Shown one piece after another: positions 13,469 to 58,472 of a DNA stretch of 64,000 nucleotides. The notes below the pieces were generated by a model, which did no database searches, was not told the origin of the DNA, and saw only the letters and a program-made list of their open reading frames with translations. The position numbers and the translations under genes are program-made. Source of the stretch: an uncultured bacterium (lineage in GTDB: Bacteria > Omnitrophota > Omnitrophia > Omnitrophales > Abzuiibacteriaceae); assembly GCA_964387845.1 (NCBI GenBank), contig CAYLXA010000005.1, forward strand, positions 128,001 through 192,000. Direction: 5' to 3'. The number at the start of each line of letters is the position of its first letter. Within the stretch, counting starts at the first letter, position 1.

Positions 13469-13543
13469 GGGCTTCATGCTGCATGCTACAAGTTACAAGC
13501 TGCAGGTTTGAAGCTTGGAGCCTGAAGCCTGTAGCTTTGAAAC
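13469..13543. repeat. heptamer-periodic palindromic element (CATGCTG CATGCTA CAAGTTA CAAGCTG / TTTGAAG CTTGGAG CCTGAAG CCTGTAG), family A
   Basis: read directly. Confidence 0.6.
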
Positions 13544-13544
13544 T

Positions 13545-15101
13545 ATGAACCAAGACGTCTGTTTAATTCTCGATTTTGGCTCGCAATACACCCAATTGAT
13601 TGCACGCCGCGTCCGCGAGAAAAAAGTTTTTTCGGCCATTCATCCTTACCACATTCCGTTCAGTAAAATCCTGGAAATCAATCCCAAAGCCATTATCCTC
13701 TCCGGTTCGCCGTCCAATGTCTACGCCAAACACGCACCGATTTCGGATAAACGGATTTTCTCACTCGGTGTTCCGATCCTGGGGATTTGTTACGGCCTGC
13801 AGCTCACCGCGCACGTCCTTAAAGGGCGCGTCAAGAAAGTTAAGCACCGCGAATATGGTTACGCCGATCTCGTGATCAACAAGCCGGGTGAATTGTTTGC
13901 GGGGCTTCCCAAAAAGTTTCACTGCTGGATGAGCCACGGCGATCAAGTCACCAAACTTCCGCAAGGATTTGAACGGCTCGCGCACACACGAACTTCAAGT
14001 GTCGCGAGTTTTGGAAACACAAAAGCCAAAATTTACGGCGTTCAGTTTCACCCGGAAGTCGTTCACACGCCGCTCGGCCACAAAATCATCGCGAACTTCC
14101 TATTCAAAGTCGCAAAATTCCGCGGCAATTGGTCGCCCAAGTCATTTATTAATGAAACCATCAAAGATATCCGCCGCAAAGTCGGAAAGGACAAAGTCGT
14201 TCTCGGGCTTTCGGGCGGCGTGGATTCATCCGTGGCCGGTGTGTTGATTCACAAAGCGATCAAGCATCAGCTGACCTGTATTTTCGTGGACAACGGTTTG
14301 CTCAGAAGAGGCGAGCGACGGCAAGTCGAAGAAGAATTCCGGAAACATTTTCATATGAACCTGCGTGTGATCGATGCGACGAATGAATTTCTGAATGCGC
14401 TGCGCGGCGTGACGGACCCCGAGAAAAAACGCAAAATCATCGGCGGACTCTTCATCAAGGTTTTCGAAAGGGAAGCCAAAAAACTCGGTAAAGTGAAGTT
14501 TCTGGCGCAAGGCACGCTTTATCCCGATGTGGTGGAATCGGTTTCGGCTCATGGCGGCCCGACGGCCGTGATCAAATCACATCACAACGTGGGTGGTCTT
14601 CCGAAGCGGATGAAATTTCAATTGCTCGAGCCCTTGCGTGATTTATTCAAAGACGAAGTCCGCGCGGTCGGCAGAACGCTTGGCATTAAATCGCAGTTTG
14701 TGGATCGCCACCCGTTTCCGGGCCCGGGTCTTGCGGTCAGGATTCTAGGCGAAATCACGCGCGAGCGGCTTTATTTGGTGCGCGAAGCCAATTGGATCAT
14801 GCTCGAAGAATTGATGAAGAATAAAGACAAAAACGGCAGATATTACGACCAGGTTTGGCAGGCCTTTGCAGTTTTGCTGCCGGTTAAAAGTGTCGGCGTT
14901 ATGGGCGATGAGAGAACGTATCAATACGTGACTTCTTTACGCGCGGTGGTCTCGGAAGACGGCATGACGGCCGACTGGGCGCGGCTTCCGGATTGGCTCC
15001 TCGCCAAGATTTCAAGCCGCATCATAAATGAGGTGAACGGCATCAACCGCGTGTGCTACGATATCAGCTCGAAGCCGCCCGCTACCATCGAATGGGAATA
15101 A
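13545..15101 (+). CDS. guaA: glutamine-hydrolysing GMP synthase
   Basis: GATase LILDFGSQYTQLIARRVRE, ATP-PPase SGGVDSSV. Confidence 0.9.
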   Translation: MNQDVCLILDFGSQYTQLIARRVREKKVFSAIHPYHIPFSKILEINPKAIILSGSPSNVYAKHAPISDKRIFSLGVPILGICYGLQLTAHVLKGRVKKVKHREYGYADLVINKPGELFAGLPKKFHCWMSHGDQVTKLPQGFERLAHTRTSSVASFGNTKAKIYGVQFHPEVVHTPLGHKIIANFLFKVAKFRGNWSPKSFINETIKDIRRKVGKDKVVLGLSGGVDSSVAGVLIHKAIKHQLTCIFVDNGLLRRGERRQVEEEFRKHFHMNLRVIDATNEFLNALRGVTDPEKKRKIIGGLFIKVFEREAKKLGKVKFLAQGTLYPDVVESVSAHGGPTAVIKSHHNVGGLPKRMKFQLLEPLRDLFKDEVRAVGRTLGIKSQFVDRHPFPGPGLAVRILGEITRERLYLVREANWIMLEELMKNKDKNGRYYDQVWQAFAVLLPVKSVGVMGDERTYQYVTSLRAVVSEDGMTADWARLPDWLLAKISSRIINEVNGINRVCYDISSKPPATIEWE

Positions 15102-15231
15102 AGTTTAGCGGTTAGCGAATAGCGTTTAGCGCATAGAAAAACAAACGAGACCATTTTTGTGAGAACTCATTTTTATTCTTTTCATTTTGTTTTTTCAGTT
15201 ATACGCTATCCGCTAGACGCTATACGCTAAT
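15102..15231. repeat. heptamer hairpin element, family B: TTTAGCG GTTAGCG AATAGCG TTTAGCG ...65-nt spacer... TATACGC TATCCGC TAGACGC TATACGC
   Basis: read directly. Confidence 0.6.
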
Positions 15232-15235
15232 AGTT

Positions 15236-57300: not shown

Positions 57301-57665
57301 TTCAGCAAATGGGCTACCAAATTATTTCTACGCGCGGCACGGCCGAAATGCTTGCCAAAAACGGAATCGAAGCTGAGCCGATTAAAAAAATCATTGAAGG
57401 AAGGCCTAACGTGACGGACAAAATCCGGAACAAAGAAATCCAACTCATCATCAACACGCCGACCGGAAGCGGCCCGATGCTCGATGAGGCTCAGATTCGT
57501 TCGCTTGCGGTCTCATTCGGAATTTCCTGTATCACCACGATTAATTCGGCGAAAGCAACCATTCAAGGCATCGAAGCCTATAAAAAACACGGGCTTTCTG
57601 TCAAAACCATCCAGGAATACCACGAAATTTTGAGGCCCAAGAAAAAGAAGCCGGTCCATGTTTGA
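54348..57665 (+). CDS. carB: carbamoyl-phosphate synthase large subunit
   Basis: two ATP-grasp halves, oligomerisation and MGS-like domains; ~1105 aa. Confidence 0.95.
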
Positions 57666-58413
57666 CGAAATTGTAGAAATTGCCTCTAACCAGAAGATCA
57701 ATTCCGAATACTGGAAATTGACTTTTGCGTCAAAAAATCTTTCCAAGCAAGTTTTGCCGGGCCAATTCATGAACGTCCAGATCGAAGATCAGTCGGATCC
57801 ATTTCTACGCCGTCCGTTCAGTTATTACCGGGTCTCGGGACAAAAAATCGAGATTTTGTACGAAATTTTGGGGCGCTGTACGGAAATCCTCACAAAAAAG
57901 AAAAAAGGCGAAACATTGAAAATCCTTGGACCGCTCGGGAAGCCGTTTTCACAGAAAATCAAAGGGAAGAAGCGCGTGCTCGTGGCAGGCGGAATCGGTG
58001 TGCCGCCGCTTGTGTATCTCGCAGAAGAAGAAAAAACAGATTTTCTGCTCGTCGGCTGCCACACAAAAGCCGAAGCGCTCCCGAAGTCGGAACTCCGAAA
58101 AGTGAAAGCAAAAGTCATGTACGCAACCGAAGACGGCTCACTCGGCGTGAAAGGTTTTGTAACGGTGGCGCTCGAGAAATTAGTCAAAGAAGAGGATCCA
58201 AAAAATTTATTCATTCAAACCTGCGGCCCGTTTCCGATGATGAGCGCCGTGATGAAGATCGCGCGCGCTTACGGAGTTGAGGGCGAGGCCTCAATGGAAG
58301 AAATGATGGCGTGCGGCGTCGGCGCGTGTTTGGGCTGTATGACGCTTACGACGGATGGTTACAAAACTTCGTGTGTGGATGGGCCGGTTTTTAGTTTTAA
58401 CCAGTTAAAGTAA
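57658..58413 (+). CDS. pyrK: dihydroorotate dehydrogenase electron-transfer subunit
   Basis: FAD/NAD-binding + C-terminal 2Fe-2S Cys cluster (CGVGACLGC). Confidence 0.85.
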
Positions 58414-58415
58414 TC

Positions 58416-58472
58416 TGCTACAAGCTGCAAGCCGCAGGCTTCATGCCTGGAGCTTGAAGCCTGTAGCCTGAA
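58416..58472. repeat. family A heptamer-periodic palindromic element
   Basis: CTGCTA CAAGCTG CAAGCCG CAGGCTT CATGCCT GGAGCTT GAAGCCT GTAGCCT GAAGC. Confidence 0.55.

Follow-up and report, generated by a model that had tools for sequence, protein, structure and literature searches.

Heptamers of the short tandemly repeated repetitive (STRR) class have served as fingerprinting targets in cyanobacteria since 1990. The cyanobacterial STRR sequences are said to go back to Mazel in 1990, and a 1997 paper by Vioque, to judge by its title, reportedly deals with an STRR lying in the gene for RNase P RNA of heterocyst-forming cyanobacteria, the position there reportedly being helix P12. To our knowledge, no explanation of the origin of STRRs, or of the reason for a 7-nucleotide (nt) unit, has appeared since 1990. 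Here we describe heptamer hairpins in a 64,000-nt stretch of DNA (contig CAYLXA010000005.1, assembly GCA_964387845.1; hereafter the window), the source of which was assigned to Candidatus Omnitrophota through its CarA relatives. Each element is a 60- to 130-nt cassette of two inverted 7-nt tandem arrays, or of one continuous array when the unit is self-complementary. The heptamer hairpins are a known but mechanistically unexplained kind of repeat, now found in a further phylum, the Omnitrophota.

The elements resemble STRRs in their 7-nt tandem units, in the presence of several unit sequences per genome, in their dispersal through noncoding DNA, and in their occurrence as inserts in RNase P RNA, which here too include P12. 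They differ in that the host belongs to the Omnitrophota and not to the Nostocales, that a second insert is present at P19, and that nearly all copies are paired inverted arrays. Arrays of CCCCAGT, TTGGTCA, or CAACAGT, which are reportedly STRR units, do not occur in the window.

In Nostoc and Calothrix, P6b of the tRNA-Leu(UAA) group I intron carries heptamer stem-loops of two classes, Class I with TDNGATT and Class II with NNTGAGT (PMC4476775). As in the window, the stem consists of complementary 7-nt units with five fixed and two degenerate positions and stands at the tip of a peripheral RNA helix; the motif class has been swapped repeatedly at one site among close relatives, and variation falls mostly in unpaired positions. 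In contrast to that group I intron, the sites here are gene junctions and RNase P RNA, and there are at least six unit families rather than two.

Heptanucleotide repeats have also been surveyed more broadly. As related in PMC4679880 and PMC4692102, Mrázek (2007) found them to be the commonest class of long simple sequence repeats (SSRs) and proposed polymerase slippage as their source. Heptanucleotide repeats are described in Xanthomonas (GGGAATC) and Nostoc (GGGGAYT), and PMC4692102 also cites those of Calothrix. Shared with the window are the specific overrepresentation of period 7, the intergenic bias, the extensive variation in length and sequence between close relatives at conserved positions and, for the GGGANTN repeats, heterogeneous units with about five conserved positions and some inverted pairs. 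The units of the window are, however, neither G-rich nor G4-forming, and the hairpin is the rule here (9 of 11 arrays) and the exception there. Direct repeats of TAACTGA occur in marine Beggiatoaceae and in some Cyanobacteria and Bacteroidetes (PMC4679880). These are likewise heptamer arrays, almost wholly intergenic, that terminate a few nucleotides short of start codons or overlap with stop codons upstream, and their distribution across phyla is patchy. They consist, unlike the elements of the window, of a single unit in oriented direct repeats, only one of 170 sets being inverted and no structure being predicted, and no TAACTGA arrays were found in the window or in the related loci that were fetched.

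The initial annotation of this DNA had set the elements apart from repetitive extragenic palindromic (REP) sequences and bacterial interspersed mosaic elements (BIMEs), from Correia elements, and from CRISPR repeats, and rightly so in view of the internal 7-nt periodicity and the head-to-tail units without spacers. REP/BIME/REPIN sequences and Correia-type miniature inverted-repeat transposable elements (MITEs) are, like the heptamer hairpins, short intergenic palindromes that form mRNA hairpins, often within operons, and they too are genome specific, with filled and empty sites. REP/BIME/REPIN palindromes are imperfect and 20 to 40 nt long. None of these element types has internal 7-nt periodicity, and neither the RAYT gene that accompanies REPINs nor the terminal inverted repeats and target-site duplications of MITEs were seen here; CRISPR arrays have 23- to 50-nt direct repeats with unique spacers. 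Likenesses to other known repeats do exist, however, and that annotation overlooked the cyanobacterial STRR and heptanucleotide SSR class, the Nostoc P6b stems, and the heptanucleotide excess reported by Mrázek. None of these heptamer precedents shares its units with the window. Such repeats go unmentioned both in the main Omnitrophota genomics paper and in a tree-of-life survey of short tandem repeats.

With confidence about evenly divided for and against, we read the elements as STRR-like heptanucleotide-repeat hairpins, DNA-level cassettes whose hairpin shape would reflect a survivorship filter and whose arrays would arise by slippage or unequal exchange in a 7-nt register and be homogenized by conversion.

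Heptamer arrays in the window

Arrays were called in a 21-nt sliding window wherever at least 17 positions matched at lag p, with 20 dinucleotide-preserving shuffles as the control. Period 7 yielded 12 arrays, whereas periods 4 to 12 were otherwise empty except for one array at period 9 and the shuffles yielded about 0. The periodicity therefore stood against shuffled controls, and Tandem Repeats Finder (TRF), together with inspection of the sequence, recovered tandem period-7 arrays at all 15 sites initially cited. After overlaps were merged, the annotated region held 11 strict arrays, nine in spacers, two in the RNase P RNA gene (rnpB), and none in coding sequence (CDS); CDS makes up 88.7% of that region, which gives P ~4e-11 for 0 of 11 in CDS. 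When weaker TRF calls are included, arrays occupy 13 of the 32 spacers of at least 30 nt. [quoted passage not shown]

The 64 kb contain at least six unit cores, namely, G[GT]nnTAA, ARGCY(T), TAGCGnn, nnTATCT, and AAATTCA, plus complements. This bears out the description of a family with a strict 7-nt register whose units differ by locus and, as the relatives show, by genome. The GGGGTAA unit, which had been listed as a separate dialect, is present but belongs to the GTGGTAA family as a variant (G[G/T]nnTAA). The individual elements are collected in Table 1. One of them, the AT-rich hairpin at 12153-12287, is additional to the sites of the initial annotation.

Table 1. Heptamer elements of the window, the RNase P RNA gene that carries two of them, and in-frame arrays in carA of other loci. 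z values are from RNAfold.
Position	Feature	Strand	Evidence and remarks
3592..3663	Single family A array, GCTTGAA x4-5 (3592-3628), then CCTTACC x2.4 (3647-3663), reverse complement of the GGGGTAA unit		No hairpin; z -0.4
5596..5623	Short family A array, AAGCTTG TAGCCTG TAGCTTG CAGCTTA, in spacer 5571-5672		z -1.8
9821..9896	GGGGTAA/GGATTAA/GTCGTAA/GTTTTAA array, weak partial partner (CATACCCCATCCCTCC)		z -2.3
12153..12287	AT-rich hairpin of AAATTCA / TTTGAAT heptamers, upstream of IMPDH-like gene		TRF; 62-nt inverted arms; z -5.3
13469..13540	Family A continuous 10-unit array/hairpin; fills spacer from IMPDH-like stop (13458) to guaA ATG (13545)		z -3.3
15103..15231	TAGCG-core hairpin, TTTAGCG x4 (15103-15136), 63-nt loop, TATACGC x4 (15199-15231)		z -6.0
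35921..36028	GTGRTAA / TTAYNAC hairpin		z -6.5
47695..48250	RNase P RNA gene, bacterial class A	+	Rfam 183.6 bits (RF00010); 556 nt
47834..47927	GTGRTAA hairpin, distal part of RNase P RNA helix P12	+	z -8.3; Rfam alignment
48128..48211	GTKRTAA hairpin, P19 position of RNase P RNA	+	39-nt arms, 85%; z -11.3
48260..48343	GTGATAA-family hairpin directly 3' of rnpB		z -5.1; related element in L157
49078..49173	Family A hairpin that begins 1 nt past PIN toxin stop		z -6.0; counterparts in L158, L143
50163..50235	Family A continuous 10-unit array/hairpin between pyrR-leader attenuator terminator and pyrR ATG		z -7.4
53024..53110	TAGCG-core hairpin filling pyrC|carA junction		z -5.9; inverted repeat found
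54254..54334	GGTATCT/AGTATCT hairpin filling carA|carB; left arm with perfect 14-nt higher-order repeat		z -7.5; inverted repeats found
58416..58475	Family A 8-unit array/hairpin filling pyrK|pyrD junction		z -6.2; inverted repeat found
L048 6827-6866; L054 5624-5653; L055 3472-3512; L052, same carA position	carA in-frame array, first site		
L048 7123-7187; L049 10528-10573; L054 5916-5958; L055 3807-3844	carA second, variable insert, before KVVVYDFG motif		

In six elements no more than about 10 nt separate the upstream stop codon from the start of the left arm, and 4 to 13 nt lie between the end of the right arm and the next ATG, so that the hairpin amounts to the whole spacer. The TAGCG-core element at 15103..15231, in which 5-bp helices are separated by 2x2 internal loops, occupies the entire spacer between the guaA stop and the dnaE ATG, and the left arm of the element at 35921..36028 overlaps the last codons and the TGA stop of a hemD-hemE fusion, its right arm ending 7 nt before the next ATG.

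Stable stem-loops positioned after stop codons recall intrinsic (Rho-independent) terminators, and a terminator class was among the functions initially suggested. However, a U-tract follows none of the elements, a terminator scan flagged no element and returned a total count equal to the shuffle expectation, and the stems are AT-rich with periodic mismatches. Several sites, moreover, lie between genes of one operon (carA|carB and pyrK|pyrD of the pyr operon), one lies past a genuine attenuator terminator and before the start of pyrR, and others lie inside RNase P RNA. Because the U-tract is missing and several elements sit inside operons, they are not terminators, and that explanation keeps next to no weight.

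Hairpin structure and unit composition

Inverted pairing is real in 11 to 12 elements, as judged by RNAfold (z -3.3 to -11.3) and an inverted-repeat search. The general description of an array followed by its reverse-complement array applies to these strong hairpins and not to the sites at 3596/3648, 5594, and 9827, where either a lone array or a weak hairpin is present (z -0.4 to -2.3); at 15102 the array is as described, but its partner arm lies at 15200, across a 63-nt loop. Family A is, as had been proposed, one continuous array of a self-complementary unit with an AAGCTT-like core, running in a single register for 8 to 10 units at 13469, 50163, and 58416.

The units consist of a conserved core of about five positions and about two free positions in fixed phase, as in GTnnTAA, GCGnnTA, and nnTATCT. 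In a set of 67 arrays drawn from the window and from related loci, 73% of the mismatches fall at the two most variable positions, against 66% expected (p = 3e-4), and these two positions are cyclically adjacent in 37 of 67 arrays, against one-third expected (p = 2e-4), a figure inflated by array-edge effects. With such a phase-fixed core and two free positions, the arms fold into helices of 5 to 6 bp that are interrupted every 7 nt by an internal loop of 1x1 or 2x2. The variable positions hold the same phase in all units, and the earlier suggestion that a register-bound process underlies the heptamer family is therefore upheld.

How the two arms relate to each other is informative. Their complementarity is 0.68-0.83 in the nested register and 0.45-0.90, mostly 0.6-0.9, when the register is shifted by 7 or 14 nt, falling to ~0.2 out of phase, and the same register-shift comparison revealed no unit-by-unit covariation between the arms in the nested register. 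Because shifted registers pair as well as the nested one, each arm is an array of cores that complement those of the opposite arm, not a copy of that arm made by folding back. Arm complementarity, said to be maintained within each element, is so for the conserved core and not for the roughly two variable positions, which do not covary. As the arms do not complement each other unit by unit, there is no support for slippage templated by a simple fold-back across the hairpin. An apparent similarity between neighboring units (lag-1 1.93 versus 2.21), which would have pointed to slippage, was an artifact produced by end units that are degenerate and by the two halves of family A.

Turnover at orthologous sites

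Orthologous sites were compared in four syntenic relatives, designated L143, L157, L158, and L160. Amino acid identity to the window is ~90% for L143 and L157, which share 94% with each other, 76% for L158, and 72% for L160; for CarA, the closest relatives stand at 88-89%, and look-ups for proteins identical to GuaA, PyrD, and CarA of the window gave no match. At pyrC|carA, where the window has a heptamer hairpin, the genes of L157 overlap (ATGGTAA) and L143, L158, and L160 have other inserts, that of L160 being a nonperiodic spacer of 340 nt. At carA|carB, again the site of a heptamer hairpin in the window, L157 and L160 are empty with the genes directly adjacent, and L143 and L158 have a GTCATTGCGAG-type palindrome. 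The fillers of L143 and L158 at these two junctions are palindromes of the GTCATTGCGAG...CTCGCAATGAC type or others. At pyrK|pyrD the family A hairpin of the window is matched in L143 by a heptamer hairpin of GTTTAAT/ACATTAA units. L143 has a heptamer hairpin at lptG|rnpB, where the window has none, and the element in the pyrR leader (50163-50235) is confined to the window, being absent from all four relatives. A family A hairpin stands at the corresponding place after rnpB in the window, L158, and L143, with differing numbers of units.

These comparisons demonstrate that the heptamer elements are noncoding, nonessential DNA-level insertions that turn over rapidly among genus-level relatives, and that they are found only where a fold-back is tolerated, which is to say at gene junctions, in 5' leaders, and at the tips of P12 and P19 of RNase P RNA.

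A separate palindromic family (GTCATTGCGAG...GAAGCAATC...CTCGCAATGAC; GTCATCCCCGC...GCGGGAATGAC) occupies the same junctions in relatives. Sites of the GTCATTGCGAG type were located in L143 (9790-9985, 11140-11250, 14570-14640, and 16395-16470), in L158 (11135-11235), and in the window (41513-41547 and 28515-28572). The window representatives are one spacer fragment and one copy within an open reading frame (ORF 27663-29381), where it falls between the MbnB/TglH/ChrH and DUF2063 domains and may reflect either an in-frame insertion of the element or the fusion of two genes.

RNase P RNA inserts

The RNase P RNA reaches 556 nt in the window and 551 nt in L157. Its length is ~405 nt in both L143 and L158, and L160 has one of 366 nt. 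The elements add ~150 nt to the molecule. Heptamer hairpins at P12 and P19 are present in the window and in L157 with identical flanks, whereas L143 and L158 have short, ordinary P12 and P19 helices and L160 lacks P19. The two genomes with inserts differ in their units. Those of P12 read GTnnTAA in the window and GGnnTAA in L157, and the P19 hairpin of L157 has mixed GG/GT units. In the elements of the rnpB region, position 2 of G?nnTAAG is T in 21 and G in 4 units of the window and T in 6 and G in 15 units of L157 (Fisher p = 2e-4), a shift that is present on both arms. The P12 inserts measure 93 nt in the window versus 88 nt in L157 and the P19 segments 96 versus 97 nt, and the loops also differ.

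The history of these inserts can be read in two ways, as the protein genes slightly favor a grouping of L143 with L157 and the rnpB backbone favors one of the window with L157. The P12 and P19 inserts may be ancestral, with loss in L143, or they may have moved by recombination.

The two RNase P copies fold much more stably on the plus strand than on the minus strand (-42.3 versus -28.8 kcal/mol for P12 and -47.4 versus -39.9 kcal/mol for P19), and the element at 35921 has a smaller bias in the same direction. No consistent strand asymmetry (G:U versus A:C) was found in the remaining mRNA-borne copies. Asymmetry as evidence of selection at the RNA level was accordingly set aside as a general trend, being restricted to the two RNase P inserts and the element at 35921.

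These observations bear on the possibility that the elements are functional RNA or DNA read in a 7-nt register, serving in the protection or processing of polycistronic mRNA or in the tuning of translation, perhaps through a protein that contacts the 5-nt core of each unit. Such a role would suit the phase-fixed grammar of five conserved and two free positions, the six elements with arms tight against the stop codon and the next ATG, and the G:U-dependent asymmetry of the two RNase P copies. Similar near-start placement is seen in Beggiatoaceae and Nostoc, and deletion of the repeats in Nostoc altered reporter expression (bioRxiv 10.1101/2022.06.06.494920). Yet the elements are dispensable, as sister genomes have no element or an unrelated one at the same junctions, and sites in RNase P RNA and, in other phyla, in the carA CDS have no connection with mRNA control. 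The mRNA-borne copies do not share the asymmetry, and the use of Shine-Dalgarno-like motifs, which precede 17 of 52 window genes (~1/3), is no different downstream of elements (3 of 8 versus 14 of 44). The elements match no known Rfam family; a scan of the window returned only RNase P and tRNA families, and a permissive scan added sub-threshold matches to miRNA precursors that amount to generic hairpins. A single protein binding every 7 nt, as the initial annotation envisaged, is hard to reconcile with at least six unrelated cores in one window, which argue against one sequence-specific reader. We consider a functional explanation unlikely.

Distribution in other bacteria

To place the window in a wider setting, we turned to 156 carA loci, taken from both genomes and metagenomes. 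Among short periods, arrays are almost confined to 7, and they are present at roughly one-fourth of the loci, including several Omnitrophota, Nitrospirota/Thermodesulfovibrionia, one Lentisphaerota, and one Flavobacteriales metagenome-assembled genome (MAG; Bacteroidota). No heptamer arrays were found in the Bacillota, Dehalococcoidia, or Spirochaetia among these loci. Its presence in Omnitrophota, Nitrospirota, Lentisphaerota, and Bacteroidota means that the heptamer phenomenon is no peculiarity of cyanobacteria. The 80 distinct arrays comprise 65 distinct units, with sharing of units mainly within one genome. An inverted partner lies within 250 nt of 34 of the 80 arrays and of none in the shuffled control. 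The window accounts for 9 of these 34, out of its 11 arrays, and the other loci for 25 out of 69; the remaining 46 of the 80 have no such partner.

In four Thermodesulfovibrionia loci, an in-frame heptamer array in carA encodes an insert of constant length, 12 amino acids, in one loop after SNWR[SA]E, and the units are internally homogeneous and particular to each lineage (GTTCGGA, GTTCAAA, or ATATCAA). As the length is constant and the homogeneous unit differs per lineage, these arrays are a case of concerted evolution within the array. A second, variable insert in carA is listed in Table 1.

The CAGTCAA unit occurs in Nitrospirota arrays (L048 7123-7187 and L049 13454-13493). It is a rotation of CAACAGT, which we take to be a Calothrix STRR unit, and both chance and a shared origin are possible.

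Origin and maintenance of the heptamer hairpins

The filled and empty states of orthologous sites, and the competition of different elements for the same junctions, raise the prospect that the hairpins are miniature mobile elements of the MITE or REPIN kind, which an enzyme acting in trans, its gene lying elsewhere in the genome, would copy to gene junctions and to the tips of RNA helices, with the arrays as its recognition structure. One unit family occurs at four to six loci within one genome and other families occur in relatives; all four G-family copies begin in the same phase (AGTnnTAAG...) and three end in ...ACTGG; and whole stems are replaced at one site, as reported for Nostoc P6b. 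Set against this, no terminal inverted repeat distinct from the array was seen, copy length, unit number, and loop are all variable, single non-hairpin arrays exist (the 46 of 80 mentioned above), and the in-frame carA arrays evolve in place at constant length. On balance, mobility of this kind strikes us as improbable.

Our preferred reading, that of STRR-like DNA-level cassettes, proposes instead that the hairpin shape would act as a survivorship filter, as an insert that pairs with itself would leave the upstream stop codon next to the downstream start codon, or one strand of an RNA helix next to the other. Such a fold-back insert would be tolerable where genes once overlapped and were probably translationally coupled. 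In line with Mrázek's proposal, replication slippage or unequal exchange would create the arrays and remodel them in a 7-nt register, and conversion, both from arm to arm and among dispersed copies, would homogenize them. Because the arms can pair in any 7-nt register, only the core positions would be consistently paired and corrected, and the other two would drift. Any-register pairing combined with conversion would, in this proposal, give rise to the grammar of five and two positions, to the absence of unit-by-unit covariation, and to the core changes between genomes that are symmetric on both arms. Any benefit, such as protection of mRNA 3' ends, would be secondary.

Several points weigh against the cassette reading. 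Slippage alone cannot build a two-armed 97-nt element in a 0-nt junction, and a step of copying or insertion is therefore required. Comparison of filled with empty sites at pyrC|carA and carA|carB revealed no target-site duplication, and a scan of 52 window proteins found no transposase, RAYT/Y1 transposase, or reverse transcriptase, two negative results that count against this insertion step and against MITE-like mobility alike. Between orthologous inserts the length difference is 5 nt at P12 and 1 nt at P19, neither a multiple of 7, whereas length steps of the Nostoc P6b type are of 7 or 14 nt. A controlled comparison of neighboring units gave no signature of slippage (lag-1 Hamming distance 1.71 versus 1.71 in shuffled order), at the low power afforded by arrays of four to seven units. 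Conversion from arm to arm is itself something that we infer. Period 7 is also not universal, as a Nitrospirota-like carA locus (L117) has period-8 arrays at ~1195-1300 and 1850-1980 (CAAAGTAT... and AGTATCAG/AGTGTCAG, ~15 units), which adjoin a period-7 array, GGAGTTC x4 (~905-935). Finally, the detailed picture comes from a 64-kb window of one Omnitrophota genome.

The phase-fixed grammar of a core plus two free positions recurs in heptamer arrays, and in one lineage octamer arrays, of Omnitrophota, Nitrospirota/Thermodesulfovibrionia, Lentisphaerota, Bacteroidota, cyanobacteria, Beggiatoaceae, and Xanthomonas, and arrays come and go between near relatives. A further conjecture, decidedly unlikely in our estimation, is that the arrays across phyla are the footprint of a dedicated, horizontally spread system that reads the register and writes or maintains them, rather than an ordinary by-product of slippage. 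Candidates would be a conversion activity guided by hairpins or a specialized enzyme such as a polymerase, primase, or recombinase.

Sets of closely related genomes in which a site is filled, empty, or filled differently provide material for phylogenetic profiling and population analysis of the cause. In practical terms, the elements yield spurious hairpin or miRNA-like matches, may break assemblies, and could mislead the prediction of operons and terminators in MAGs.

Gene context and additional observations

The genes of the window are housekeeping genes, nearly all on the plus strand, among them an IMPDH-like gene, guaA, dnaE, HU, dnaG, rpoD, the hemD-hemE fusion, and lptG, together with a pyr operon in the order pyrR-pyrB-pyrC-carA-carB-pyrK-pyrD. 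The exceptions on the minus strand in the 64 kb are 39022-39951 and 44105-45778. The fusion (ORF 33989-35932, 647 amino acids) joins HemD (uroporphyrinogen-III synthase) and HemE (uroporphyrinogen decarboxylase) domains, and its last codons and stop lie within a heptamer array.

Upstream of pyrR, the leader contains a sub-threshold match to the PyrR-binding site (50043-50141; RF00515, 36.9 bits versus 54) and an attenuator terminator. Leader and terminator are conserved in three relatives (L143, L157, and L158), and L160 retains them in part. The segment 49949-50141 includes GGGGACAGTCCCAATTGGGACTGTCCCC, a palindrome of 28 nt without mismatch, followed by a sigma-70-like promoter and then by the pyrR leader.

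The first 1-12 kb of the window hold a toxin-antitoxin and restriction-modification island. This dense defense and addiction island (1105-12000) includes ORFs for the N- and C-terminal parts of HipA, a DUF6036 nucleotidyltransferase, a DUF5131 protein, a MazG-like gene, Vsr with a C-5 cytosine methylase, an MNT/HEPN pair, and a Gp49-like/antidote pair. Two further stretches, 814-918 and 2390-2463, are AT-rich palindromes. Downstream of rnpB, an RHH-antitoxin/PIN-toxin pair (48452-49076) has a strong promoter of its own, TTGACA-16-TATTAT (48388-48415). The cassette is probably mobile, to go by its distribution, because it is present in the distant L158 (6037-6662; 76% amino acid identity) and missing in L143 and L157, which are closer to the window.

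No evident link connects the heptamer elements with a small stand-alone HNH protein (42676-43047). Just upstream of the intact tRNA-Met in L158 (3400-3660) and L160 (4530-4682) are partial copies of the tRNA-Met 5' end (GGGCCCTTAGCTC...), which resemble what integration or excision at the tRNA gene would leave behind.

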